DNA of 64,000 nucleotides from a virus. Below the pieces are notes generated by a model that searched no databases, was not told the DNA's origin, and saw only the letters and a program-made list of their open reading frames with translations. The translations under genes and the position numbers were made by a program. The stretch lies in the IMG/VR virus record IMGVR_UViG_3300048587_001155, positions 12,534 through 76,533 of that record. One strand, written 5' to 3'. Positions 7,573 through 64,000 of this stretch are shown here, in pieces. Position 1 is the first letter of the stretch; the number at the start of each line of letters is the position of its first letter.

Positions 7573-7752
7573 CTGTTACGCGGCGATTTGAGGTCAAGCA
7601 TCACTTGGAGTACAGACGAGGTGGTGAACCTAAGCAAGTTTCAGATGGAAGACAACGACTAATCGTCGAGTCTGCTGAGTTCACCCATTTCCGTTTGGTA
7701 AACCAAGCGCAGATATCGAGACTGAGTTAAGGTGAATTGACTGTTTGATCTT

Positions 7753-7793
7753 GGCCGGCGGTTTTGTGCATGGCCCGTCGGTCTCTTTTTTTT
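7753..7793 (+). terminator. Rho-independent terminator
   Basis: GGCCGGCGG...CCGTCGGTC stem with G-U pairs followed by a long T run, downstream of the methyltransferase operon. Confidence 0.65.
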
Positions 7794-7873
7794 AAGCTAC
7801 GTTTCGTGAGCCCCGATCGGCATGGGCGAACGATGCGGGGGCGCAATCCTAGCTCATGTCGATTCGGGGTCTA

Positions 7874-8107
7874 CTACTTTGGCCGGTTCAAGCTCTGGAA
7901 GATGGCAAGCGCATCCTCAGCTTCCTGGCCGTGCAGATAGTGAGATTCCCCGCCACGATCCGGCGAACTGCCGACAACAACCTCGAGTATCTTCTCTTCT
8001 TCGTCGAATTCGGCCTCGCGGATAAAAGCCGTGTTGATGAACTTCAGCTTGCGGGTCAGCCCGTTGAGTCCCTGCTCAGTCCTCGTGAACTTGATGAATG
8101 GCGGCAT
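7874..8107 (-). CDS. Small hypothetical protein
   Basis: 77-aa ATG ORF with protein-like composition, lying between two hairpins. Confidence 0.55.
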   Translation of the reverse strand: MPPFIKFTRTEQGLNGLTRKLKFINTAFIREAEFDEEEKILEVVVGSSPDRGGESHYLHGQEAEDALAIFQSLNRPK

Positions 8108-8206
8108 CGAATCCTCCCGTCGAGTTCTGTGATTTCTGACGGAATAACCGAATGAAGAGCGGATTTCGAGAGCATTCTGGACTACATTGGTGCATCGTTT
8201 GGGTTA

Positions 8207-8246
8207 GGCCGGCGGGTTATGGGACTCCGGATCCGCCGGCCGTTTT
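8207..8246 (+). terminator. GC-rich hairpin, possible terminator
   Basis: GGCCGGCGGGT ... ATCCGCCGGCC followed by GTTTT. Confidence 0.45.
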
Positions 8247-8359
8247 ACCCTCCGAAAACCCGGAATTCCACCTGTTGCGACTGATTCGACTTTTCTAAAC
8301 TCCGTTCATTGGCTTCGGGTTGGACCCAAGCGTTATCGCTACTTCATGATGGAGGAGCC

Positions 8360-9595
8360 ATGCCACGTCAAACTACGACATATCGCGTATTAATTGCGTC
8401 ACCTTCGGATTGTGAAGAAGAACGAAGATTAGTTCCAGAAGTCATAAGTGACTGGGTTGATGGCCATTCGTTGTCGCTCGATATCACCGTATTGCCTGTC
8501 AAATGGGAGACGAATTCGGTCCCAGAATTAGGAGAGAAGGGCGCTCGGCCACAGGGAATAATCAACAGTCAACTTATCAAAGACTCCGATATTCTTGTCG
8601 CGATCTTTTGGAGCCGCCTCGGAACTCCGACAGGAAAAGCAGATTCCGGTACGATCGAAGAAATCGAGGAATTCCGAAAGGCCGGCAGACCGGTTCTCGT
8701 CTACTTTTCCCAAAAACCGGTACCAAACAATGTCGATACATCTCAGCTCGAAAAGCTTCGCGAATACCGCGAACAAATTCGGCACGAAGGAATTTGTTTT
8801 GATTATCATTCGCTCGAGAATCTGCGAAACCTTCTATCCAAGCACTTAAACAGAGTGATCACCGAGCTTCATGAAGTCCATAAGCTGAGTCTCAAAAATC
8901 CTGTTAACGCAGAACCTATGGACGAGAGGCTAAAACGCTTTCGTGAATTCGCAGACGAGTTCGACTCTTTTCTTCGTGGATTCGAACTGAAATGGCACGC
9001 CGAACAAGAGGTCAGGCAGATCAATTTAAACAACGGAAAATCCCATTTATTAAGTGCGTATGATCACGTTCACACATTGACCAGCCGCATCAAGTTTGGG
9101 TTAGATGAGATCAAAGAGCCATTGAAAGAAATATTAGTGAAGATTCGACAATTGCAGGACCATCACCTATTCGCGGACGGTGGCAGATCCATGGCTGAGT
9201 TCTGGGAACATGGCAATGAGATCATCAAAGACTTGCATGGCATATCCGGCAAAATCCGTGTACTGGAAAGACGATTGCTAGAACCTCAATCTGAAATCCC
9301 GCCCAATGCGCATCCCAATGACAGAGGCGTATCATTGTCAGAGCTTGCGGCAGAAATCATTCGTGAGGCGGTGAAAGATAAGAACGGAATGATTTTGGCG
9401 TATGGCCTGTTGGATGGCTGGCATGTGGCCACTAATCAACTCGACTTTGTTGAACCTGATGATCCTCGAAGTGAAGCAAAAGCACGCGCCGCGATAAAAG
9501 AACTTCAAGCAAATGGTTTAATCGAGCAGCGCGGAAAAGAGTCGTACGGAGTCACAGCGGCTGGCTTTGACTGGACCGACAAACAAAATCCCTGA
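8360..9595 (+). CDS. DUF4062-like (NDT/TIR-like nucleotidase fold) protein with helical and wHTH-like C-terminus
   Basis: YRVLIASPSD.EEER, WE, PQ.IIN, SDILVAIFWSRLGTPT, SGT.EE, VYFS; SD GGAGG precedes ATG 8360. Confidence 0.8.
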   Translation: MPRQTTTYRVLIASPSDCEEERRLVPEVISDWVDGHSLSLDITVLPVKWETNSVPELGEKGARPQGIINSQLIKDSDILVAIFWSRLGTPTGKADSGTIEEIEEFRKAGRPVLVYFSQKPVPNNVDTSQLEKLREYREQIRHEGICFDYHSLENLRNLLSKHLNRVITELHEVHKLSLKNPVNAEPMDERLKRFREFADEFDSFLRGFELKWHAEQEVRQINLNNGKSHLLSAYDHVHTLTSRIKFGLDEIKEPLKEILVKIRQLQDHHLFADGGRSMAEFWEHGNEIIKDLHGISGKIRVLERRLLEPQSEIPPNAHPNDRGVSLSELAAEIIREAVKDKNGMILAYGLLDGWHVATNQLDFVEPDDPRSEAKARAAIKELQANGLIEQRGKESYGVTAAGFDWTDKQNP

Positions 9596-9599
9596 TGAA

Positions 9600-9624
9600 C
9601 TAAATTTAGCTCCCTCACTAAACC
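9600..9624. repeat. 25-bp direct repeat, copy 1 (CTAAATTTAGCTCCCTCACTAAACC)
   Basis: 23/25 identical to 11636-11660; begins with the 10-bp palindrome CTAAATTTAG. Confidence 0.85.
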
Positions 9625-9806: not shown

Positions 9807-10262
9807 GTGTGCGTTCACCATGAAGACACAGTCCCCGGCCCTGTCCATCCTCACCATACAGCCATCAACAACAGGTGCTATTTCTTTTACGACAAGCACC
9901 ACAGGCCAGCCAACGTCGACGATGCTCAGTGGCTACCCGGCCTTCCGTCGGCAGAGGAATTTGGTGTGTTCGAGCGAGCGAATGAGCACGATCTGTCCAC
10001 CAATGGGGGGGACTTGTTCGGCCTACGAATCCGAGAGGGACTAGTTTTGGAACTCGGGATGTTCGGCGAGCAGGTAGCCAAGTTCCCGTTCGTCTGTGGC
10101 AACATGCCGTGGCACGGGTTTCCACACTGGCCCTTAGCCACGAACGGTCTTGCTGGCGGCCGCACGTATCCACCTCCGCGGAAAGTTCTGAAAAAAATGG
10201 AAGCGGTCGGACTCATTACCGCCACGCAGCGAAGGCGGCTTGAATCTGGAAAGCACGTATGA
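9807..10262 (+). CDS. Hypothetical protein (WHGFP motif, possibly toxin-like)
   Basis: 151-aa ORF coupled by an ATGA overlap to the next gene. Confidence 0.65.
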   Translation: MCVHHEDTVPGPVHPHHTAINNRCYFFYDKHHRPANVDDAQWLPGLPSAEEFGVFERANEHDLSTNGGDLFGLRIREGLVLELGMFGEQVAKFPFVCGNMPWHGFPHWPLATNGLAGGRTYPPPRKVLKKMEAVGLITATQRRRLESGKHV

Positions 10263-11389
10263 CTAGTACCCCTTTTCGCCACATCCTCCACAAGTTACCT
10301 ACCGTTATCACTTGGGCCGGCATCTGCCCCTGGACGAACACCTACTGTTTCGGGTCGGGAACGGGTAGAGTCGGCGTCTCGCCCGGTAGCCGTCGGACGC
10401 TTGGGAAGAAGGAGGTGCACCCGACGAAGAATGTCGATGTCGCCACCGCCCCCGTCAACGGTATAGCCTTTCTCGGTCGATTCGCGGCCGTGTCATCTCG
10501 CCACGAAATCGTCATCCTCCCACGTAGCGATCTCTACAAGAGTCACTTCGGACAGGTGGTGCTCACTCACGACAACGGCGCGCACGGCGTAGTGGCCGTC
10601 AACGCTATTCAGGAATTCGTTGCGCCGATTGGCGCCGGCGGCTTGGTTTGCCTCACAACTCGCCGCAAGAGCCGACCGCGCGTTAGGATAGAGCGGACGC
10701 CGGAGCGCAGCCTGAACTTTTACAAGGTCACGGTCGTCAGAGAGTACGAACCGAGGGCTCTACTAGCCGCCGCCTGCCGTAAAGGCGGTATCGCGGCCTT
10801 CTGCCTCACGCAGGGACAGCCGCCGTCAGCGATCACTCGCCACGTCTTCGGGAAGGGCGACATCGTGGACATCGTTGCCGTTGGCGAACCGCAGGCCTCG
10901 CATGGTGTCATCGGACTCAGCAAGGACGGATCGCTGGTTTGGATTCCAGACGTGCTCGCCAGTGCCCCTCCACGCACTATTTCTCCTCGCATCTCCATCG
11001 ACACCGCATATTCCTTGCTATTGGTCAAAGGACATGGTTTAGTTCTGGCCGACAAGACCCTCTCGTGCTTGCCCTATCTGGTTGACGGTCTAGTTTCGGG
11101 GCGGGATTCGATCGACGGCTTTACCATTCCGTTCGAGGGCGACGAGTTGCTACCGGCGGCGGAGGGTTCGTTCTTCCTCCTCACTGACGAGGGGCCCAGA
11201 GAGTTCGAGATAGAGCAGTTTATCCAGGACGCTAATGCTCTGCACAACGCCGACGCTCGAGGACAGGTTCCACCGGAGCCTTACTCGGCAATTATCCGTG
11301 CTAATGTCAGCCAATACGGATACTTGCCAGCCGAGCTCGACTGGAACCGCGAGCCGGACGCCGCGTTCGACAAGGAGTTTGTCGGATGA
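10259..11389 (+). CDS. Hypothetical protein, predicted beta-rich (propeller-like)
   Basis: 376-aa ORF with short hydrophobic strands separated by Gly turns. Confidence 0.65.
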   Translation: MTSTPFRHILHKLPTVITWAGICPWTNTYCFGSGTGRVGVSPGSRRTLGKKEVHPTKNVDVATAPVNGIAFLGRFAAVSSRHEIVILPRSDLYKSHFGQVVLTHDNGAHGVVAVNAIQEFVAPIGAGGLVCLTTRRKSRPRVRIERTPERSLNFYKVTVVREYEPRALLAAACRKGGIAAFCLTQGQPPSAITRHVFGKGDIVDIVAVGEPQASHGVIGLSKDGSLVWIPDVLASAPPRTISPRISIDTAYSLLLVKGHGLVLADKTLSCLPYLVDGLVSGRDSIDGFTIPFEGDELLPAAEGSFFLLTDEGPREFEIEQFIQDANALHNADARGQVPPEPYSAIIRANVSQYGYLPAELDWNREPDAAFDKEFVG

Positions 11390-11635: not shown

Positions 11636-11660
11636 CTAAATTTAGCTCCGTCGCTAAACC
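11636..11660. repeat. 25-bp direct repeat, copy 2 (CTAAATTTAGCTCCGTCGCTAAACC)
   Basis: 23/25 identical to 9600-9624; contains the inverted repeat TTTAGC-N6-GCTAAA. Confidence 0.85.
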
Positions 11661-16269: not shown

Positions 16270-16327
16270 CCTGGATGCCAAATGACTGTGACACTTACCA
16301 ATGAAGAGAAAGCGTGAGGTAATCCAC

Positions 16328-17596
16328 ATGGCGAAACCCCGTCGGGGGCGTGAGAAATCATCGCCCCTTCCGGCACGTCCGAAGGTCTACGGTTACGCGC
16401 GAGTGAGCACGTTCCGTCAGACGGGTCGACAATCGATCGATACCCAGCGTGAGCAGCTCAAGCTATTGGCAGAGCGAAACGGCTTGGGGCCGATCGATCA
16501 GATCTTCATCGATGAGGAAGCAAGCGGAGGAACGCCGATCGTCCAACGGCCGGCGGGGCGTGATCTTTGCTTCCTAGTCTCTCCCGAAGATGTTGTGCTG
16601 CTCACCGATCTTGACCGCGCGTTTCGTTCTACGTCGGACGCGCTCGAGACGTTATTGCGTTGGCATGCCGTCGGGATCCGCGTGATCATCCAATCCCTCG
16701 AGGGTTGGGGAACGCTCGACATCAGTACGCCGATCGGGGAGTTCTTTCTCACCGTTCTTGTAGCCGTGAAGAAGCTGGAACGAAATCAGCGCGTGGCCTT
16801 CGTGCAGCAATGCTCGCGCGATGCCATGCTCAAGGCCGAAGCCGAGGGATGGGATTGCACGAGTCGGCGGTACGCTCCTGTGGGCTTCGACTGGGCTTAC
16901 CTCGGATCGGACCGCGGGAAGACTCGTCTGGTTCCGAATGAGGACGATCTTGAAAGCATGTCGATCATTGGTGTGCTGCGAGCTCAGGGAAGGGCGTACG
17001 ACCAAATACGTGATGAGATCCTTCCCCAAATCGGGCGTGAGAAGAGACTTCGCGCTATCCGCCGACAGATCGGCAACAAAAGCATGAATCATCGGCGGTA
17101 TGAGATCAGACGTCATCAGAACGTGTGGCAATGGCACGCGATGGAAAAGGCCTGCGTGTGGTGTGAATCGCACCGTCAGGAACAGGAAGAACTGGCAACT
17201 AGGGTTGCATCAAATCACCCGGAATGGGCAAATCGTTGGGGGCTTGGGAACTATGTTCAAGGATTGGCGACGGAGACGAACGGCAACGATGGAAACGGAT
17301 TCGCAGGAACCGCGCCGCCACATGTTGAAGCGATCGGGGAAGGGGAACCCTCCGCTCGTTTTCCAGGGGATCTTGATTGCCGAAGTGACGGGCCCGAACT
17401 ACTCGGACGCGAAACGCTGGCACGATCTGCGCCTCTACCGAACGGTGAATCAACGGTATGTGGTGGAGATTGTGTTGGTGAAGGCAATTGCGGGCCAAAA
17501 GAGCCATCACTCGGCCGTGATGGTCGAGGATCTGACGGAGGCGAGGGAAGCCTTTTATTCTCACGATCCAATGCAAGGGATCGATTTCCCCAATAA
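16328..17596 (+). CDS. Serine recombinase (resolvase/invertase family)
   Basis: VYGYARVST, Q...L, DEEASG...RP, DLDRAFR, G.F...V......ER; C-terminal tail overlaps the next gene. Confidence 0.88.
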   Translation: MAKPRRGREKSSPLPARPKVYGYARVSTFRQTGRQSIDTQREQLKLLAERNGLGPIDQIFIDEEASGGTPIVQRPAGRDLCFLVSPEDVVLLTDLDRAFRSTSDALETLLRWHAVGIRVIIQSLEGWGTLDISTPIGEFFLTVLVAVKKLERNQRVAFVQQCSRDAMLKAEAEGWDCTSRRYAPVGFDWAYLGSDRGKTRLVPNEDDLESMSIIGVLRAQGRAYDQIRDEILPQIGREKRLRAIRRQIGNKSMNHRRYEIRRHQNVWQWHAMEKACVWCESHRQEQEELATRVASNHPEWANRWGLGNYVQGLATETNGNDGNGFAGTAPPHVEAIGEGEPSARFPGDLDCRSDGPELLGRETLARSAPLPNGESTVCGGDCVGEGNCGPKEPSLGRDGRGSDGGEGSLLFSRSNARDRFPQ

Positions 17597-54090: not shown

Positions 54091-56505
54091 ATGGCGAAAC
54101 GCACATCATCTTCCATGCGTTGTGAGCCCAACTTCTCGGAGATTCCTCAAGATTTGTTGAGTCTCGATCAGTGGGTTTTGTGGCGAAAGATGCGCCGAGA
54201 CGGAAGGATGGCAAAGCTCCCGATTTGTGTTGCCGATCCATTATCTGCCGCTGACGTGTCCAACTCATCAACATGGAGCTCGTCAGAGAGAGCGATTAGC
54301 CAATACAAGGCTCTTCTCTCGTCTACAAATCCGATGACCGGCATTGGCTTTGTCTTCTCGGCCGACGACGGCTTTGCCGGCATCGACATTGACGACTGCA
54401 GAGATGCTAAGACAGGGCTCATCTCGCTTTGGGCCCGGCGAATCATCGATAAGTTCGGTAGCTACACCGAGGTGTCTCCGAGTGGAACAGGCGTTAAGAT
54501 CTTCGTCCGTGCAGAACTTCCCGGAGCGGGCTTTCGATCCCAAGTAACGGCCGACGGCGATCGCTGGACAAAGCAGTGCAGCGATCCCAAGGCCAGCGAG
54601 ATCGAGATTTACGATCAGAACCGTTACTTCACGGTCACTGGCCGCAAGCTCAAGAACACAACATCTGAGATCCGATTTTGCCAGGACGAACTCGACGAGC
54701 TGGTGAGCAAGTATTTTCGCCGTCCGACGAAGGCGTGCCGAGTCAATGGCCTTCACAAGGGATTGAACCCTTCGCCGTCGGACGATGAGCTTCTCGAAAA
54801 GGCACGATCAGCAGCTAACGGCGACAAGTTCGTGAGTCTCTTCGCCGGGGACATCAAGGGATATCCGTCGCAATCTGAGGCCGATCAGGCACTCTGCAAC
54901 ATGCTTGCCCATTGGAGCAAAGGAGATGAAGCACAGATCGATCGAATGTTTCGCCGATCAGGTCTAATGCGATCCAAATGGGATCGAAAGGACTACAGGC
55001 AACGAACGATTGGAAGAGCAATTGAACAATCTGCGTACCAAATGCCAGGACACTCCCATACAGATCTCAAAGATGCTGGCGGCAACACCGAATGTAATTT
55101 CCCTGGAGGAGATACTCGTCCCCAAGCACTTCGTTGCACCGATACCGCGAATGCCGAACGCCTCAATCGATTGTGTTTCAACAACGTTAAGTATGTCTCC
55201 GAATGGAAACGGTTCATTGAGTGGGATGGAAGGCGATGGAAGATCGTTGATGACATCGTCATCCAAGATCGCGCGAAAAAGGTATCGGTGTTGATTTTTG
55301 AGGATGCTCTGAAGCTATCGGGTGATGAGCAGCAAAAGCTCATGTCATGGGCTAGGCAGTCTGCGAATGCGCCGCGTATCGAGGCGATGGTGAAACTTCT
55401 TCGACCGATGGTCTCGATGGACGCGACGGCGTTAGATCGAGATCCATGGCTTCTTAATTGTCCGAACGGCACCTTGGATCTTCGGGACGGCCAATTGCAA
55501 CCTCACCGGAGAGAGAATTTCATCACAAAGCTGTGTCCAACAGACTTCAATCCGAATGCGAGATCCCCATTCTTCGAGGCAGCCGTCTCCAAGATTTTCA
55601 GGGGAGACGATCAACCTGAATTGGTCGATTTTTTCCAGCGTATATGTGGTTACATGCTCACCGGCGATGTCAGCGAGCAAGTCATGTTTATCTTCTGGGG
55701 AAATGGGTCTAACGGAAAATCGATGATCACAGAACTGATTCTGTCGATCATGGGACAAGACTACTCGCGAAAGGCACCGCACAACTTCTTAACGACGAGT
55801 AAGACCGAGCGCCACCCTACCGAGCTTGCAGATCTTTTCGGTAAGAGATTTGTTGTGGCCACGGAAACCGATGACGGCCGAAAACTTGCGGAGGCCTGCG
55901 TCAAGGAGCTCACTGGGGCGGATACAATCACTGCGCGTCGAATGCATCAGGATAACTGGAGTTTTCGTCCGACACATAAGCTTGTACTCGTCACAAACTA
56001 TCCTCCCACGGTACATGGAACAGAGGATGGCATCTGGCGCCGATTAGTAATCATTCCATTCACCGAACGCTTCTGGGATTCCGAAAAGGGGGAGTCAGGT
56101 CCGAGTAATCGAAAGATGGATAAACGTCTCCTTCGAAATCTCGAACAAGATTCATCAGCAATCCTGGCATGGATGGTCCGCGGCTGCCAGCAATGGCAAC
56201 AATTTCGAGGTCTCCGAATCCCGCCATGCGTTCTAAGTGCGATGCAGGAATACCGTGATGCCGAGGATCTGATTCGCTCCTTCATCGAAGATCGTTGCGT
56301 CATCAACAAAGATGCTCGAGTAAAGACAAGCGATCTTTATTCGGCATATCGCGACTGGTCAAAAATCAACGGAGAAGATTCGCTTCGTCAAGTCGCTTTC
56401 GGTGATCGCCTTACAAAACTGGGATTTACTTCTCATCGCGGCGCCCAGGGAGTTCGTTACCGACTCGGTATCGAACTAGAAGTATCCACAGGGGGGGGGA
56501 CTTAG
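54091..56505 (+). CDS. P4-family primase-polymerase / SF3 (D5-like) helicase
   Basis: GIDID, TEVSPSGTG, EIY...RY.T.TG, SEAD, LLNCPNGTLDL, Walker A GNGSNGKS, KELTGAD.ITAR. Confidence 0.92.
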   Translation: MAKRTSSSMRCEPNFSEIPQDLLSLDQWVLWRKMRRDGRMAKLPICVADPLSAADVSNSSTWSSSERAISQYKALLSSTNPMTGIGFVFSADDGFAGIDIDDCRDAKTGLISLWARRIIDKFGSYTEVSPSGTGVKIFVRAELPGAGFRSQVTADGDRWTKQCSDPKASEIEIYDQNRYFTVTGRKLKNTTSEIRFCQDELDELVSKYFRRPTKACRVNGLHKGLNPSPSDDELLEKARSAANGDKFVSLFAGDIKGYPSQSEADQALCNMLAHWSKGDEAQIDRMFRRSGLMRSKWDRKDYRQRTIGRAIEQSAYQMPGHSHTDLKDAGGNTECNFPGGDTRPQALRCTDTANAERLNRLCFNNVKYVSEWKRFIEWDGRRWKIVDDIVIQDRAKKVSVLIFEDALKLSGDEQQKLMSWARQSANAPRIEAMVKLLRPMVSMDATALDRDPWLLNCPNGTLDLRDGQLQPHRRENFITKLCPTDFNPNARSPFFEAAVSKIFRGDDQPELVDFFQRICGYMLTGDVSEQVMFIFWGNGSNGKSMITELILSIMGQDYSRKAPHNFLTTSKTERHPTELADLFGKRFVVATETDDGRKLAEACVKELTGADTITARRMHQDNWSFRPTHKLVLVTNYPPTVHGTEDGIWRRLVIIPFTERFWDSEKGESGPSNRKMDKRLLRNLEQDSSAILAWMVRGCQQWQQFRGLRIPPCVLSAMQEYRDAEDLIRSFIEDRCVINKDARVKTSDLYSAYRDWSKINGEDSLRQVAFGDRLTKLGFTSHRGAQGVRYRLGIELEVSTGGGT

Positions 56506-56983: not shown

Positions 56984-57321
56984 CAGGAAACGTGATTCGG
57001 ATCATGTTCCCCGATGAATTGCGTATGCCCTCGGCTCGGAGAGTAGTTCAGAAGGAGGTCCAATGAGAATTGAACAATAAGCGAGCTTCATGTTCGCAAC
57101 TCCCGTCACAAACCTCGAGGCTCATCATTGTCGCCTCGGGCCAGCAGTTCCAAATCCCATGAGTTCTCGAAGTCGGCATACGCCAATGACATCCCACGTG
57201 GATGATCTGCGGAGCGCTGCGCTTTGTCGTTCTCAGTGGGCGAGTCAAAATTCGCGTGTGAAATGCTCAGTCGTTTCCGAGTGGATGATCGCTAGCGAAT
57301 GGAATGAGAGGCAGCAGATGA

Positions 57322-57350
57322 AAAATCTAGTGCAATTCGAACTAGATTTT
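57322..57350. repeat. Perfect 10-bp inverted repeat AAAATCTAGT-N9-ACTAGATTTT
   Basis: AT-rich dyad upstream of the recombinase pair. Confidence 0.75.
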
Positions 57351-57695
57351 ATTTGCAAAGACACTGGGCCCGATATACGGATATGAAAGCGGCCCAGCGA
57401 AGAGATGACAGCTCTCCGCTGGACCTGACCGTTCGAAACCGTACCGACTGAGGGTCCGGCCCCGTGGCTGCACGCCTTTTTACCAGTCTGCGCGCTGGCT
57501 ATCCATCCCAAGATGCCGACTTCCCTTCAGCGGTTTCGCATGCGCGGTCTTTTCCAGTATTTCGAGCCGGTTTTGCGATGTCTTCCAAGAATCGTTCACT
57601 TCGATTTTTGCACGTGAGACGTGATCCGGGCTCGTTCCTTGATGGTCCAGTTTCGGGACCCTTCATGCATCCGATCGAATCGAAAGGGAAACGCC

Positions 57696-58949
57696 ATGGC
57701 AGTTGAGATGGGAAACCGTTCCCAGCGGAAAGACCTGACGCTATTCGAGTTCATCGATGAATATTGCCGCGGCACGCGGCTTCTCGGTAAATCGCCGAGC
57801 ACGTACTCGCAACTACTCAAAACCTTGGCACGCATTGAGGAAATGCTCGGGCGCACCTCGACGGTGCGGGATCTCGGCAACGAGTTGGTGTCCCGCTACA
57901 AGATCTTCCTCAAGGCAAGGGGAAACGCAGCGAGCACCATTCGACGCGCCGCATTTGAACTTAAACGGATTTGGAGTTGGGCATTTATTCAGGGATTCAC
58001 CCTGGCCGATCCGAAGGACGATGGCGTTCCTTGTGAGACGTCTGCATCAATGCCGCTCTTGAAGTTCTATCGGAAGATTTACGTTCCCCAGCGTCTCATA
58101 ACGGCGAGTCTCCACACACGCACGGCTTACGAAACCATCATCGGACGGCTCAACCGAACATGGGGACGGCCTGTGCTGCTCGCAGATTTGTCGCGAGAGT
58201 TCCAACGAACGATGATCCAAGAAATGACGAGTAATGGGCTTTCGCCAGGCACGATCAAGAGCACGATGGTCAGCCTTCGCTGCATATGGCGAGAAGCGGT
58301 CGAGGAGGGAATCATCACGACGTTGCCGCCTCGCCTCGGCATCAAAGAGATTATCCGGATTAAACCAGCTTGGAATGTTCAGCAGGTTGGCAAGATCCTT
58401 CAATCGGCCGCGCAGGAGTGCGGCGAGATCGAGGGAATTCCTGCCGGGACATGGTGGGTCGCTTTGCTTTTGGTTTGCTATGACTGCGGAGCTCGCAAGC
58501 GGGTCATCATGCGGACGCCGCTCTCAAGTGTGATGTGGGACGATTGCGCCATCCATTTCCCTGGCGAACTTCAGAAACAACGACGCGATCAATATTCGGC
58601 CGTCAGTCAACGAACGATGGAGATCCTCAAAGGAATTCGCGATCCCGATCGTTCGCTTTTATTTCCTTGGCCCTTCGACAAAGGGAATCGAACGACATTT
58701 CCGGCGCTCGATCGAAAATTCAAGGAGATCCTGAGCCGCGCAGATATCGGTTGGAAGCCGAGTGATTGGCGAAATGGCTTGTTCCATCGATTGCGAAGGA
58801 CACGAGCATCGTATGGCGAGCGAGCAATTCCGGGATCGGCGACCGAGGATCTCGGCCATTCTTCGCGGGCAGTGACACAGCGCTATCTCGATCCCTCAAT
58901 CGTTGGCTGCCATCGAACGGTCGATCACATCCCGCGGCCGGAATTCTGA
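57696..58949 (+). CDS. Tyrosine recombinase with two core-binding domains
   Basis: CGARK, QK, FHRLRR, LGHS, RY: catalytic R-K-H-R-H-Y present. Confidence 0.88.
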   Translation: MAVEMGNRSQRKDLTLFEFIDEYCRGTRLLGKSPSTYSQLLKTLARIEEMLGRTSTVRDLGNELVSRYKIFLKARGNAASTIRRAAFELKRIWSWAFIQGFTLADPKDDGVPCETSASMPLLKFYRKIYVPQRLITASLHTRTAYETIIGRLNRTWGRPVLLADLSREFQRTMIQEMTSNGLSPGTIKSTMVSLRCIWREAVEEGIITTLPPRLGIKEIIRIKPAWNVQQVGKILQSAAQECGEIEGIPAGTWWVALLLVCYDCGARKRVIMRTPLSSVMWDDCAIHFPGELQKQRRDQYSAVSQRTMEILKGIRDPDRSLLFPWPFDKGNRTTFPALDRKFKEILSRADIGWKPSDWRNGLFHRLRRTRASYGERAIPGSATEDLGHSSRAVTQRYLDPSIVGCHRTVDHIPRPEF

Positions 58950-59003
58950 TGTTCGTCGCGGCGCAGTTCTCCTTGCTTACGAATCACCCGGAAGGAAACA
59001 GAC

Positions 59004-60764
59004 ATGATCTCGAACACTTTGGCCTCGTCACGACAGTCGACGACAGCAGAGGGATATTCACTAATCGACTTCGCAGACAAGTACTGCCGTCAGCATCGGC
59101 TTTTGGGACGAAAGGCCGGAGCATATCGGCATTACGTACAGACATTGCTCCGCGTGGATGAGATGTTGGAACGATCCGCTTCCATCAGTGATTTGAATCA
59201 AGAATTGGTGGCAAGGTTTAAGTCTTTTCTCAAGGCTCGAGGAAACTCGTTAGTCACGATAAAGAATCGCTGCATAGCACTTCGAAAGATATGGAAGGTC
59301 GCATTCGATCGGCATTTCTCTGATAACGATCCGGCAAGCGAAGGCGTGCCTGTCGAAGTATCGCTCAGATCATTCTTCGAGCGGAAGCTCGTGGGAACAG
59401 CGTTCGCGAAGTCGGCACATCAGATCGCCTCATATCGATGGACCGTTAATACCATCGCGAGGATTCTCGATCGTCCACCGCTTCTTTCCGACTTAAACGC
59501 TGACGTAATGGATCAGATAAAGCATGTACTCCACCACACGAATCTTTCGCCGAGAACCATCAGTAGTCGCATGACGCAGTTTCGCGCACTTTGGGTCGAA
59601 GCATATCGACGTCAATTGGTTTCGAATGAGCCGATTTATGACGGTCGAAGTCGATCAAGCCGCATTACGAATGAATCGAGAGCGGTTCAGCAACCATCAG
59701 TCATTATCGAAGATGAGGCATACTTCGACCGATCTCGAAAGGATCTGCGTTCTCTCGACGACTCATCTATCTCATTGATGCAATACCTTGAGGATCACTA
59801 CGTCCCGGAACGTTTGTTCGCCGCGCGCGAATTGACGATCGAGCAGTATCGTGTTGCGGTCCGCTTCGCGACAAAGGCATTCGGCCGGGAAGTGACGATC
59901 AAAGATTTGTCACCGCAACTAATCGCCGATATCGTCCGATTGGGAACGCAGCTCCGTTTTAGTCGGTCGACAACTAATGGCCGAATACGTCACATAGGAT
60001 GCATTTGGAGACAGGCTCGTCATTCCGGCTTTAGATGTCTCGAACCGTGTCGGACGCGAATTAAAGAGCCCAAGCGATTCAAGACGTGTTGGACGGTCGC
60101 CCAGATCGCGGCCATCTTAAACGCTTGCCTTCAAGAGCAAGGATGGATCGGCGCGGTTCCTGCCGCTGATTGGTGGTTCGCATTCATTCTTTGCATGTAT
60201 GACTCCGGATGCCGGAAACGTGCTCTTCTCCATGTTCCCCGTGAGAATGTCGATCTGACTTACCGCGCCTTTCGTGTTCCTGCTGAGTTTCAAAAGCAGA
60301 ATCGCGACCAATGGTGTGCGGTGAGTGAACAGTGTGTCGAAGCAATCAAGCGAATCTGGAATCCGGAACGCAGATACCTTTTCGAATGGCCGTATGATCA
60401 GTCAGAAGTTTCGCGCATGCGAACGCTTGATACTCGTTTCAAAGTCATTTTGCGTCGCGCTGGATTGAACGCAGACGAGAGGTTGTTTCACCGCATCAGA
60501 AGAAGTCGCGCCACTTACGGCGAGTTAGTGGCGCCTGGAAGTGCCACAGAGGACTTAGGACACCAGAATCGATCGACCACATTAGCTTATCTGGATCCGC
60601 GCGTGATCGGTATATCCCGAGTCGCAGATCAAATACCGCGTCCGAACGTCAATCAATCGATTACCCAAACATCGGATCCCACTATGGGTCGCTCTGTTCC
60701 AGGAAAGTCTGTGGTTGGGCTCAAACAACTCACGAACCAATCCATCACTTCGGAGGTGCAATGA
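59004..60764 (+). CDS. Tyrosine recombinase with three core-binding domains, paralog of the upstream gene
   Basis: SGCRK, QK, FHRIRR, LGHQ, AY. Confidence 0.88.
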   Translation: MISNTLASSRQSTTAEGYSLIDFADKYCRQHRLLGRKAGAYRHYVQTLLRVDEMLERSASISDLNQELVARFKSFLKARGNSLVTIKNRCIALRKIWKVAFDRHFSDNDPASEGVPVEVSLRSFFERKLVGTAFAKSAHQIASYRWTVNTIARILDRPPLLSDLNADVMDQIKHVLHHTNLSPRTISSRMTQFRALWVEAYRRQLVSNEPIYDGRSRSSRITNESRAVQQPSVIIEDEAYFDRSRKDLRSLDDSSISLMQYLEDHYVPERLFAARELTIEQYRVAVRFATKAFGREVTIKDLSPQLIADIVRLGTQLRFSRSTTNGRIRHIGCIWRQARHSGFRCLEPCRTRIKEPKRFKTCWTVAQIAAILNACLQEQGWIGAVPAADWWFAFILCMYDSGCRKRALLHVPRENVDLTYRAFRVPAEFQKQNRDQWCAVSEQCVEAIKRIWNPERRYLFEWPYDQSEVSRMRTLDTRFKVILRRAGLNADERLFHRIRRSRATYGELVAPGSATEDLGHQNRSTTLAYLDPRVIGISRVADQIPRPNVNQSITQTSDPTMGRSVPGKSVVGLKQLTNQSITSEVQ

Positions 60765-61141
60765 TGATCCGTGTATCATTCGATCGTGATCTCTTCAAAA
60801 GCTATGACGAAACCGTGGAACCATTGCCAAGCGAACACCTCTATCATCTTTCCGCGGCTTGTCTGCGCCTCCTGTTATTTCATCATCCGGACTCTTCGGA
60901 CGAGGACAAAAGGTCGAAGTACGACGATATAGATGTTTCGATCGGCGAAACGGCCGCAGCATGTTTTCAGATGGCTGGATACTTCGAAGCGATGGAATTG
61001 GGAAAACCATTGCCGGAAGAGTTCCTTGAGTCGTCGGGCGAATTCATCGTGTACACGGACGCGTCGAAACGATTCCGCGTTGAGCCGATAGCACCGTGGG
61101 AAGAAACTCCCGATCGATTGCGTTCAGGTTCTCCATCGTGA
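60761..61141 (+). CDS. Hypothetical protein
   Basis: SD GGAGGT; ATGA overlap with the recombinase. Confidence 0.65.
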   Translation: MMIRVSFDRDLFKSYDETVEPLPSEHLYHLSAACLRLLLFHHPDSSDEDKRSKYDDIDVSIGETAAACFQMAGYFEAMELGKPLPEEFLESSGEFIVYTDASKRFRVEPIAPWEETPDRLRSGSPS

Positions 61142-61208
61142 AGTTGTTCGATGGTCAGAGTTGTGGGACGAGGATTCTTTCTCCCCGGGAGACATAAAGG
61201 AACGTTCG

Positions 61209-61625
61209 ATGATCACTCAACGAGTCACATTTAACGCAGACAAGATGTTGAAATTATGCAATGCGATACGTAAGGGCTTAACCATTGTCATTGACGATGA
61301 GCAATATGACAGCGACGACATCATGTGTTGCACTTATTCCGTCATGATGCATGATTTCTACTCGAAATACCTGCCTTGGAAATTAGCTAATCGAAAGCCG
61401 ATTCAAGCGGAAGTCGTCGAACATCTAATCCAAACTGAAGGCCATCGACATCATGCGCGCCTTGAAGCTGTCGCCATGGTCCTTCATATTCTTCGTCGAG
61501 ACCGAGCGGAATGGCAAAACAAGCTAACTTCAGACGACGGGGATATAGACCTGCTCGTCAGTGGATATGGCGATGAGCAATCGATCACAAGATATGAAGG
61601 CGAGCAGGTTACTCATGAATGGTAA
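61209..61625 (+). CDS. Hypothetical protein
   Basis: SD AAAGGA. Confidence 0.6.
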   Translation: MITQRVTFNADKMLKLCNAIRKGLTIVIDDEQYDSDDIMCCTYSVMMHDFYSKYLPWKLANRKPIQAEVVEHLIQTEGHRHHARLEAVAMVLHILRRDRAEWQNKLTSDDGDIDLLVSGYGDEQSITRYEGEQVTHEW

Positions 61626-61897
61626 AGCTCGCTCTATCGCCAAGACTTTTGAGTCCCTAATCTTGCAGCCGAGAAGCGGAGAACACGTCGACCTCGGTCT
61701 TACCACGGTGGGCCATTGAAGAAGGAGGTAACCCCATTCGAATCAAATCAGGGCAAGGCGTTCCCTGGTGATGATTCTCCTCTCGCCAGTATGGCGGGGG
61801 GAGGAAGTGGAAGTAGATGAGTTTGAATTCCGATTGTACGCGCGATTTGTGTAACCGTCGTATTGCAATCGGGCAACAGCAGAAAGTGAGATCTTAA

Positions 61898-62266
61898 ATG
61901 GAGAATGTCATCGACCGTTTGAGAAAGTCCAAAGAAGCATCCGCTGAAGAGGATCGCCGGAGTGGAATGGAGGCTGGCACTGAATGGGCAAAGAAAGAGG
62001 CCGAATGGAGATGTCTTGTCGCGCTGAATCTTGAATTTGGTTCTGCGGATGACAGCTTCTGGGACGAGGTCGGCAGCGATTCGGATGTCGCGGAGCGCAT
62101 CGTCAGCGTCTTAGACGATGACGGCTACCGGCCGGATTGGGATCGCGTCAAAGAGTGCTGGGAGGCGATCGCGGGCATCAACGCGGATAAAGTGACGGCA
62201 GCATTTGCCCGTGGGTTCGTCGAAGGAGCGATCGAGATATTCAACACTGTCAAGGACAAGGTTTGA
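61898..62266 (+). CDS. Hypothetical protein
   Basis: 122 aa; G.EAG.EWA and F.RGFVEGA. Confidence 0.65.
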   Translation: MENVIDRLRKSKEASAEEDRRSGMEAGTEWAKKEAEWRCLVALNLEFGSADDSFWDEVGSDSDVAERIVSVLDDDGYRPDWDRVKECWEAIAGINADKVTAAFARGFVEGAIEIFNTVKDKV

Positions 62267-62349
62267 GCCTTGTCCACTTGACCTGCCTGTTGTTCGCAGA
62301 GAGGAGCAGGCAGGCACCTCCTTTAACCTTCAGATGAGATATTTTCGTC

Positions 62350-63417
62350 ATGTCGGATCGAATTCATGTCTGGATTCAGCGGTTCAAAGATCGCCCCAAT
62401 CTGATGTTGCAGTGGATAGACCCTGCCACCGGCCGGCGGCGGTCTAAGTCGACCAAGACATCAGACATGGAGGAGGCTGAACAACAGCGAAGCGATCACG
62501 AGTACGAGCTCAATAACGATTTGTACCATGATCGCTCGAACCTCTCGTGGGAACGATTCAGAGAAATCTATGTCACCGAGAAGTTCGGTGGGGCTCCGCC
62601 CAACACGCTCTCAAAAGTCGAGACGGTATTCGCCGACTTCGATTCGCGTATGAAGCCGAAGAATCTTGGCGCGGTCACTGAAAGAACCTTCAGCGGTTAT
62701 GCCACCAAATTGCGCGAAGCTGGACGAGCTCCGGCTTCCATCCACGGCAACCTGGCATACTTGAAAGCGGCTTTCCGATGGGCGCAAGACCAAGGTCTCA
62801 TCCATCGCATGCCGAAGATCATCATGCCAAAACTTCCGAAAGGAACGAACAAGGTCAAGATTCGAAATGCGTCGCGCATCACTGTTGAAGAATTTGAAAG
62901 GCTTCTTCTCAAGGCTCCGAACAACGGATGGAAGATGCTCATCGCATTCGCTTGGAATTGCGGTATGCGCCGCTGCGAAGCGATGGCTGTCCGCGGCCGA
63001 GATATCGATCTCAAGGCACACACGATCGACATTCCGAAGAATAAGGCGCGCGATGAAGGTGCCACGGTATTCGTAACCCCCGAGCTTGATGCGTTACTTC
63101 GCCTGATGTTCCCTGATGGGGTTCCCGACGGTCCGATTATCCACGGAATTCCCAAGAGCGAAAAGGAAGTCTCACGCGATTTCGTCGACAAGATCTCGAG
63201 CAAGGCGGCAGTGAAGGGGAATAGCAAAGATGGTTGGGCCACCTTACATGATCTGAGGCGCAACTTTGGGAGCCGGTGGATGCTGAAAGTGCCGGCCCAA
63301 GTCCTACGTCGCATGATGCGCCATTCGGACATCAACACGACTTTGGACTTCTATGCCGATGCGGAGAAAGCCGCTATGGAAGTCATTTGGCCGGAGGGGA
63401 ATGAGAAACTGCGCTGA
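62350..63417 (+). CDS. Phage-type integrase (tyrosine recombinase)
   Basis: N-terminal arm-binding QWIDP.TGRRRSKST; CGMRR, KNK, LHDLRR, MRHS, FY. Confidence 0.92.
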   Translation: MSDRIHVWIQRFKDRPNLMLQWIDPATGRRRSKSTKTSDMEEAEQQRSDHEYELNNDLYHDRSNLSWERFREIYVTEKFGGAPPNTLSKVETVFADFDSRMKPKNLGAVTERTFSGYATKLREAGRAPASIHGNLAYLKAAFRWAQDQGLIHRMPKIIMPKLPKGTNKVKIRNASRITVEEFERLLLKAPNNGWKMLIAFAWNCGMRRCEAMAVRGRDIDLKAHTIDIPKNKARDEGATVFVTPELDALLRLMFPDGVPDGPIIHGIPKSEKEVSRDFVDKISSKAAVKGNSKDGWATLHDLRRNFGSRWMLKVPAQVLRRMMRHSDINTTLDFYADAEKAAMEVIWPEGNEKLR

Positions 63418-64000
63418 GGAACAACCGCCCAAATTGGCTGACTTCCTTGCGTAATTCGAACAGAGGTTCGTCGAGATGGTAAATGTGATCGATACTCAAC
63501 AGCCCGACCACCTCAAGGCGACGTTCGACATGTTCAATACGAAAAGATTCGGAGTCCGAGGATCGCACAGATTCCAGAGGATCAGGACGAGTGCTTGCGT
63601 CGAGAAACCACTTCGCGTCGTCTGCACTCAAATCTCGCAAGACTCGGATGAAGATTGGGCTTTGATTGTCAGCATTGGTCGCCGCGCCGGCTAACAACCC
63701 AGCCCAAAGTTCCTGTAGAGTTTCATCCTCCGAATCGCCACACGCATCTAAAAGAGGAATCAGGAAGCCGGCAGGCATCGTTTTCGGGTCAATTACCCTT
63801 CCTTTCAACCGCTTTGCTACTCGGTCAAGAATGCGAATCCGATTCATCAGTCGCCACGCATAAATGTGGTCGCTTAACATCCCTCCCGCAATTCGGCATG
63901 GATTGCCAACGAGTGACTCAAAGAGGTCGAGGCCCGCTTCGACAACAGGTTTCGCCAGCTTAGTGGCTTCGACAATGGCCGCGGTTTTGGATTCGTCCAT
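63383..64000 (-). CDS. Abi-alpha (DUF4393-like) protein; start at the window edge
   Basis: G.ML.D....WR..N, PLL......EDETLQELWAGLL, P.FI.VL..LS..DA. Confidence 0.78.
   Translation of the reverse strand: MDESKTAAIVEATKLAKPVVEAGLDLFESLVGNPCRIAGGMLSDHIYAWRLMNRIRILDRVAKRLKGRVIDPKTMPAGFLIPLLDACGDSEDETLQELWAGLLAGAATNADNQSPIFIRVLRDLSADDAKWFLDASTRPDPLESVRSSDSESFRIEHVERRLEVVGLLSIDHIYHLDEPLFELRKEVSQFGRLFLSAVSHSPPAK

Follow-up and report, generated by a model that had tools for sequence, protein, structure and literature searches.

The DNA considered here is a window of 64,000 nucleotides, which forms the final 64 kb of a provirus record of 76.5 kb (IMGVR_UViG_3300048587_001155) representing a planctomycete-type prophage. 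At positions 57696–60764 the window bears two co-oriented genes, YR-A and YR-B, which are separated by a gap of 54 bp and encode the tyrosine recombinases P0001 and P0002, with two and three core-binding (CB) domains, respectively, in front of the catalytic domain. The parts of the pair are as follows, positions being those of the window:

57696–58949, plus strand: YR-A (P0001, 417 aa), tyrosine recombinase with two CB domains and a catalytic domain
57726–58031: YR-A, first CB domain (CB1)
58041–58340: YR-A, second CB domain (CB2)
58359–58946: YR-A, catalytic domain
59004–60764, plus strand: YR-B (P0002, 586 aa), tyrosine recombinase with three CB domains and a catalytic domain
59046–59351: YR-B, CB1
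59352–59627: YR-B, CB2
59628–59759: YR-B, disordered linker
59760–60059: YR-B, CB3
60066–60647: YR-B, catalytic domain, followed by a C-terminal tail of low confidence

Tyrosine recombinases are textbook two-domain enzymes, and the first-pass annotation, made from the letters of the window, had claimed two and three reiterated CB domains for the two proteins. The repeat units were delimited at residues 11–112 (A1) and 116–215 (A2) of P0001, and at residues 15–116 (B1), 117–208 (B2) and 253–352 (B3) of P0002. BLASTP of each protein against itself gave no internal match, and segment-wise Smith–Waterman comparison was needed to detect the repeats; the scores of all ten pairwise combinations of the five units, each of about 100 residues, exceeded those of 300 shuffles (z between 4.1 and 43). 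The Pfam family PF13102 (integrase SAM-like) matched two stretches in P0001 and two in P0002, while a custom CB profile built from the units found two of them in P0001 and three in P0002 (E ≤ 1e-18). The AlphaFold2 model of P0002, obtained with a 150-sequence alignment (mean predicted local distance difference test score, pLDDT, of 83), contained equivalent four-helix units at residues 17–104, 118–202 and 256–340, with the catalytic domain after the third unit and with linkers (residues 107–116 and 209–245) of low confidence or disordered. The whole model matched XerA, Tn1549 Int, lambda Int, IntI4, XerH and Cre (Foldseek E from 7e-9 to 1e-3). When residues 1–219 of P0002 were modelled separately (pLDDT 87.6) and aligned to 48,161 chains of solved structure, recombinase-type CB domains took all of the 23 best rows, and each of the distal units was matched independently, residues 116–213 to 3nrw (Z 10.2) and residues 17–116 to IntI4 (Z 9.8); the CB domains of XerD and lambda Int were matched with Z 8.6. 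The claimed reiteration is thus borne out by the shuffles, Pfam, the models, the matches to solved structures and the purifying selection described below, and the structural check of the repeats, set beforehand as one of two points that could refute the claim, yielded four-helix CB units. All of the CB units are basic (pI 9.6–10.8), and as each chain has several of them, it is reasonable to infer that the proteins act at several sites on DNA.

P0001 and P0002 aligned in BLASTP at 9e-73 over the CB and catalytic domains, and a second, colinear alignment joined their N-terminal domains at 2e-39. The motifs quoted in the first-pass annotation are present, PGSATEDLGH in both proteins, and both have a complete R-K-H-R-H-Y set (R267, K294, H364, R367, H388 and Y397 in P0001; R404, K431, H496, R499, H520 and Y529 in P0002), so that BLASTP and residue mapping confirmed the earlier description of the two genes as a paralogous tyrosine recombinase pair. 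The catalytic R, K, R and Y are invariant across 150 family members, the best hits of the search described below. P0002 scored above the cut-off of Pfam PF00589 (37.0), whereas P0001 fell slightly under it (23.2 vs. 27.1). With their intact sets of catalytic residues, YR-A and YR-B are simple-type (phage-integrase-like) tyrosine recombinases that are apparently active. In a quick tree the two came out as sister paralogs with a support of 94; sister paralogs lying 54 bp apart mean duplication in place, not accretion.

An orthologous locus occurs in the metagenome-assembled genome (MAG) G001 (contigs L016 and L004), and the comparison with it helped us to set gene starts and to estimate selection. 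The likely start of YR-A is the ATG at 57696, which aligns with the ATG of the ortholog and at which the pattern of DNA conservation switches, the 100 bp before it being near-invariant relative to G001 and the coding part about 77% identical. The public gene call of P0002 begins at Met54 (533 aa; 59004–59162 left out), which removes half of CB1; we prefer the 586-aa form on the grounds of the ortholog P0006 and of how strongly the two paralogs resemble each other in their first repeats (z = 43). The ratio of nonsynonymous to synonymous substitution rates (dN/dS) relative to the G001 orthologs was 0.15 for YR-A and 0.11 for YR-B, and for the individual repeats of P0002 it was 0.23 (CB1), 0.16 (CB2) and 0.07 (CB3). 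These ratios indicate that both genes are under purifying selection, every CB repeat of P0002 included.

As judged from sequence comparison, the pair belongs to a large unnamed family prone to CB reiteration. A HMMER search through 1.84 billion cluster representatives yielded at least 2,310 hits at E ≤ 1e-3, of which 176 were at ≤ 1e-30. The proteins range from about 290 to 817 aa and are mostly metagenomic; those that bear public names have generic ones ("integrase" or "phage integrase SAM-like domain-containing protein") and come from Planctomycetota or unclassified MAGs; the atlas clusters closest to the pair are viral integrases of 300–315 aa. Architectures were counted with our own CB and catalytic (CAT) profiles in 153 sequences, comprising the best 150 of the 2,310 hits, the window proteins and P0006:

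CB-CAT: 75 of 153
CB2-CAT: 25 of 153
CB3-CAT: 10 of 153
CB4-CAT: 1 of 153
CB6-CAT: 1 of 153 (P0036, 817 aa)
with an extra upstream catalytic-like unit (CAT′): about 40 of 153

The extra catalytic-like unit spans approximately positions 3–143 of the 190 positions of the profile, so that neither the last His nor the Tyr nucleophile is included. It typically stands in a CB-CAT′-CB-CAT layout of about 625–650 aa (P0013, P0014, P0030, P0031 and others; by locus, L048 6425–8374, L049 6221–8164 and L045 1292–3187), and by its sequence the truncated unit looks like a tethered, non-cleaving DNA-binding pseudo-protomer. One further protein, P0008 (798 aa), contains a truncated catalytic domain besides two full ones. 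The spread of architectures argues that N-terminal reiteration of its own DNA-binding parts is a trait of the family, and in the quick tree such reiteration is present in several separate clades.

Among described recombinases, the only published precedent that we found for reiterated CB domains, and a partial one, is RitA: it is the sole described tyrosine recombinase with two sequential CBs, and the classification states that the doubling is absent elsewhere (PMC8138268). The genes of RIT elements come from three distinct families, overlap by 4–8 bp and form a compact element with terminal palindromes (PMC3414803, PMC5737581). The two CB domains of RitA and the row of co-oriented recombinase genes recall the window, where P0001 has two CBs and P0002 three. 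Unlike in RIT, however, 54 bp separate the A and B genes of the window, which are sister paralogs, the third recombinase gene lies 1.6 kb downstream with three open reading frames (ORFs) between, and the CB count rises to three in the window and to four and six in relatives. The RitA/B/C proteins of plasmid pHG1 served as the reference trio. Our CB profile found two weak CB units in pHG1 RitA, and the family catalytic profile scored it at 1e-8 vs. 1e-60 to 1e-70 for the members. BLASTP of pHG1 RitA against the window proteins gave a best E of 0.43 for P0001 and 1.1 for P0002, and the best value among all comparisons of RitA/B/C with P0001–P0003 was 3.7e-4 (RitC vs. P0001, 25% identity, in the catalytic domain only). 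A search for terminal palindromes of the RIT type detected no inverted or direct repeats flanking 57.6–63.4 kb. RIT membership was rejected, as the three families, the overlaps, the terminal palindromes and any meaningful sequence similarity are all missing.

Membership among the Xer proteins fared no better. The Xer equivalogs TIGR02224/TIGR02225 gave 27.5 and 49 bits vs. a cut-off of 329.6, and the XerC model gave 24.5 vs. 335, so the label "XerC/D-like", which the pair had received at first, fails. The integron integrase model TIGR02249 had no match to P0001 or P0002, and tblastn of P0002 against 72,556 PLSDB plasmids and 50,697 GenBank phage records returned no match. Since the pair belongs to neither RIT nor Xer and has no plasmid or phage match, the architecture is not a commonly described one, RitA being a partial precedent; a common architecture had been the other point set beforehand for refutation. 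Tandem reiteration of CB-like units outside recombinases is known from the rhizobial Nop/HsvG-type type III effectors, where one to six such units form a DNA-binding array (PMC13667924); the likeness extends to the number of copies, up to six, but the recombinase domain is lost there, whereas it is intact in the window pair. What is new here is the reiteration of CB domains up to six copies, beyond the two of RitA, in an unnamed recombinase family.

The surroundings of the pair were then described. The element is about 67 kb long and is integrated at tRNA-Ser(GGA). An exact 59-bp copy of the 3′ part of tRNA-Ser(GGA) is found at G000 10337–10395, 2.2 kb left of window position 1, and is likely attL. 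This copy, together with the tRNA-Ser that lies past the integrase in the ortholog, places the whole window inside one element or composite; the idea that 51.4–64 kb is a separate satellite abutting the prophage found no support, as there is no internal copy of the tRNA-Ser att repeat. A tandem motif, two copies of GTAACAGTT(T/G)AC, was noticed about 115 bp inside the 59-bp tRNA-Ser copy. The neighbours of the pair are:

54091–56505, plus strand: D5-type primase-helicase, the upstream replication gene, in the same rightward block as the pair
56984–57695, no strand: non-coding region of 712 bp preceding YR-A, with 95% identity to G001
60761–61141, plus strand: ORF126 (126 aa, acidic, pI 4.6), whose start overlaps the YR-B stop (ATGA); dN/dS 0.19
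62350–63417, plus strand: integrase P0003 (355 aa, one CB and a catalytic domain), the tRNA-proximal integrase of the element
63383–64000, minus strand: Abi_alpha (abortive-infection family), lying past the integrase on the way to the tRNA end; the start codon of this gene is where the record ends

The order in G001 is primase-helicase, a small ORF, the 712-bp spacer, YR-A, YR-B, ORF126, the integrase, Abi_alpha, tRNA-Ser(GGA) and host genes. P0003 is 97% identical in amino acids to its G001 ortholog, with a dN/dS of 0.06. The synonymous divergence (dS) from G001 is about 0.9 for the pair and ORF126 (58106–61137) and 0.26 for the integrase (62347–63391), and a near-identical patch was seen at 59306–59455, within P0002. 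Such mosaic divergence between the window and G001 indicates recombination between related prophages.

Family genes were then sought beside integrases of other genomes. Matches to the family were found in 57 of 401 genomes of the same class and in 4 of 401 genomes of an even sample of the phylum, and the context was read at about 60 genome loci. At no fewer than 10 other loci, one or two family recombinases, usually multi-CB, lie upstream of and co-oriented with an integrase (Int) of a different clade:

L027: two-CB gene, Int, tRNA-Leu, the genes being 4 bp apart
L044 (genome G565): two family genes, Int, tRNA-Leu
L045: CB-CAT′-CB-CAT protein, four-CB protein, Int, tRNA-Leu
L054: three-CB gene, Int, tRNA-Thr
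L060: family gene(s), Int, tRNA-Glu
L051 and L065: family gene(s), Int, tRNA-Arg
L082: family gene(s), Int, tRNA-Gln
L031, L046 and L047: family gene(s), then Int, in the gene order of the tRNA-abutting loci

The spacing between the family gene and the integrase varies from overlapping up to 1.6 kb, and several of the terminal integrases are homologs of P0003 (28–44% identity). The association is asymmetric, as seven of eight loci centred on a generic tRNA integrase have that single recombinase only, and this fits an add-on role of the family genes. The pair is thus part of a multi-recombinase block that recurs at the end of integrated elements nearest the tRNA; the genomes G006 and G162, which also carry this block, are complete. 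This recurrence upstream of a tRNA-proximal integrase at 10 or more other loci makes it doubtful that the pair is separate from the integrase at 62350, as had been supposed in the first-pass annotation. The recurrence of extra recombinases beside an ordinary tRNA integrase is likewise new here. The pair of L044 also consists of sister paralogs (support 99 in the quick tree), so that tandem pairs arose independently at least twice. At a further locus, L059, a 449-aa ORF (7615–8961) with three weak CB units and without a catalytic domain comes immediately behind a two-CB recombinase and precedes a tRNA-Met-proximal integrase.

Taking these data together, we tentatively favour an explanation that is quite possible though by no means certain, namely, that the pair works in integration/excision with P0003. 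YR-A and YR-B would serve as accessory catalytic recombinases alongside P0003: the CB domain adjoining the catalytic domain would clamp the core half-site, as in any tyrosine recombinase, while the distal basic CBs on their flexible linkers would bind extra arm-like or accessory DNA sites. CB reiteration might then supply what an arm-binding domain or architectural proteins give to lambda-type integrases. The extra CB and truncated catalytic units in about 40 of the 153 relatives point in the same direction of accessory DNA binding. Joint action of several tyrosine recombinases has precedents, since Tn554 and GInt need two or three of them (PMC3414803, PMC5385486).

The comparison with single-integrase systems shows how far the likeness goes. 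Simple integrases that lack an arm-binding domain (about 300 aa, CB + catalytic, e.g., Int of mycobacteriophage Brujita and archaeal XerA) share the fold of the P0002 CB3 and catalytic core (5hxy, 5vfz), and half of the family members have the same plain CB-CAT architecture; in contrast, P0001 and P0002 add one or two N-terminal CBs and sit upstream of another integrase, not at att. The proposed logic, whereby one chain would bind the core and a distant accessory site via a flexible linker, resembles that of lambda-type integrases, and the catalytic and CB folds match those of lambda Int (1z1b, 2oxo). However, the N-terminal units of P0002 are four-helix CB folds rather than the three-stranded arm-binding fold, and the Pfam scan gave no match of the arm-binding family in the pair.

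Several observations weigh against joint action with P0003. The divergence of the pair and that of the integrase from G001 are very different (see the dS values above), and such unlike histories imply that pair and integrase did not evolve as a single unit in tight co-adaptation. The multi-CB loci L050, L052, L053 and L055 have no adjacent second recombinase, and the one-CB relatives are often found alone beside tRNAs, like self-sufficient integrases. Around the pair, in the upstream spacer and at the att-proximal ends, no repeats beyond chance were found except one inverted repeat and one short tandem motif. Finally, synteny is linkage, not cooperation.

A more far-reaching version, which we regard as doubtful, is that the block represents an undescribed integration machine of Planctomycetia, in which a tRNA integrase is obligately paired with one or two partners whose CB arrays (of up to six) or pseudo-protomers read arrays of accessory sites. 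If so, heterobivalent binding and control of directionality would have been reached independently by a second route, which replaces arm-binding domains and Xis/IHF-type factors. More generally, if the extra domains read accessory sites, they would provide a new way to build site selectivity and directionality into recombinases, of relevance to prophage and island integration in Planctomycetia and to the design of programmable multi-site recombinases. Should the pair turn out to be dispensable, it would still be a clean case of recurrent domain reiteration in a DNA enzyme.

A rather unlikely alternative to joint action with P0003 is that the pair forms an independent resolution or maintenance system of the Cre/lox-, Xer/cer- or TnpI/IRS-like type, which would resolve multimers at a site in the 712-bp spacer, the extra CBs binding accessory subsites for selectivity. 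The spacer (56984–57695) is indeed more conserved than the adjoining genes (95% vs. about 79% identity to G001), its indels relative to G001 are not multiples of three, and it contains a perfect inverted repeat, AAAATCTAGT-N9-ACTAGATTTT, with arms of 10 bp around a spacer of 9 bp, at 57322–57350. The adjacent primase-helicase replication gene and the divergence history of the pair, unlike that of the integrase, may also be counted in favour of resolution. Recombinase genes often lie beside their own site, and TnpI of Tn4430 binds accessory repeats, which speaks for the same role. However, the inverted repeat at 57322 occurs only once and its arm motif is not enriched within the 64-kb window; no evidence was found that ties the pair to this repeat. 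The att-proximal arms share no k-mers with the conserved intergenic region, scans for promoters and terminators gave nothing above the shuffled expectation, and the Rfam scan of 50–64 kb gave no match, the attC family included. The conserved region may serve in regulation, as an origin or as a site of recombination; it could equally be an origin or a promoter, and a pure resolution role does not predict the recurrent place of the family genes just upstream of a tRNA-proximal integrase.

The model put forward initially, an obligate XerC/D-like heterotetramer in which YR-A and YR-B each occupy one half of an asymmetric site independently of the integrase, now appears improbable. XerC/XerD are similar in being a paralogous tyrosine recombinase pair that could in principle serve two half-sites; both window paralogs have all the catalytic residues and have been kept under purifying selection since before the split of the window and G001, and since a tandem pair arose independently in G565 (L044), pairs seem to be favoured. 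The Xer proteins, in contrast, have one CB and are encoded by chromosomal housekeeping genes acting at the dif site, whereas the window pair is prophage-borne and its Xer equivalog scores are far under the cut-off. No asymmetric site was found, and most of the related loci have one family recombinase plus an integrase, which implies that two family paralogs are not generally needed.

It is also hardly probable that YR-A and YR-B are stand-alone alternative integrases for other att sites, or relics of elements stacked at the same tRNA, with no tie to P0003. Such a reading would agree with the solitary one-CB family members beside tRNA genes (L057, L063, L068, L069 and L075), with the occurrence of relatives on viral contigs near contig ends, and with the presence of another element, satellite-like and equipped with an integrase, to the left of the 59-bp att copy. 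Against it, the stretch from the pair to the integrase contains no further copy of the att repeat, the 54-bp distance between the sister paralogs indicates duplication in place, their dN/dS is 0.11–0.15, and the order across loci is consistent, the family gene being distal and the other-clade integrase tRNA-proximal.

The least probable explanation by far is that YR-A, YR-B and ORF126 constitute a nested transposable unit (Tn554/GInt/RIT-like) inserted in the prophage: two recombinases followed by a small translationally coupled ORF do recall tnpA-tnpB-tnpC and ginABCD, and the divergence is unlike that of the flanks, but the genes occupy the same position in the window genome and G001, no terminal inverted or direct repeats bound them, divergence changes in a mosaic fashion and not at sharp boundaries, BLAST showed no similarity worth counting to RitA/B/C and none to anything in the 72,556 plasmids, and ORF126 is without a family and without relatives in other loci. 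In Tn554 (TnpA, TnpB, TnpC) and GInt (GinABCD), all of the recombinases are required for integration/excision where tested (PMC5385486, PMC3414803), and Tn554-like elements have been reported on plasmids (PMC3414803). The likeness of these systems to the window consists in several tyrosine recombinase genes in an operon-like block, sometimes with a small extra gene; they differ in inserting at protein-gene ends or att554, not beside a canonical tRNA integrase, and repeated CB domains have not been reported for them. The sequence comparison with Tn554 and GInt is indirect, made through the tblastn of P0002, which had no match in the plasmids.

As for ORF126 itself, no Pfam or NCBIfam family matched it, and among the loci read its relatives occur only at the G001 ortholog locus; its role as a general TnpC-like module part was rejected for this reason.

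Between the recombinase pair and the integrase, downstream of ORF126, there is a moron-like insertion of 1.2 kb (61138–62346) with two acidic ORFs (154 aa, pI 5.1, and 122 aa, pI 4.4), which is missing from the G001 locus. On the other side of the integrase, Abi_alpha holds the same slot in G001 (L004 4193–4804), with 51% amino acid identity vs. 97% for the adjoining integrase. The virion genes (terminase, portal) lie at 18–46 kb on the opposite strand, and on the far side of the virion block there is a serine recombinase gene (16301–17596; PHROG DNA invertase / integrase, 431 aa), which, together with YR-A, YR-B and P0003, brings the number of recombinase genes in the element to four.

Nothing supports the suggestion, made at the outset, that the pair is tied to the repeats at 9600 and 11636, which are real but lie 46 kb off. 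They form a 25-bp direct repeat (9600–9624 and 11636–11660; 23 of 25 positions identical, zero expected by chance) containing TTTAG-N8-CTAAA, and flank a 2-kb segment with two ORFs (9807–10262 and 10259–11389) of no Pfam family, a segment that looks cassette-like.

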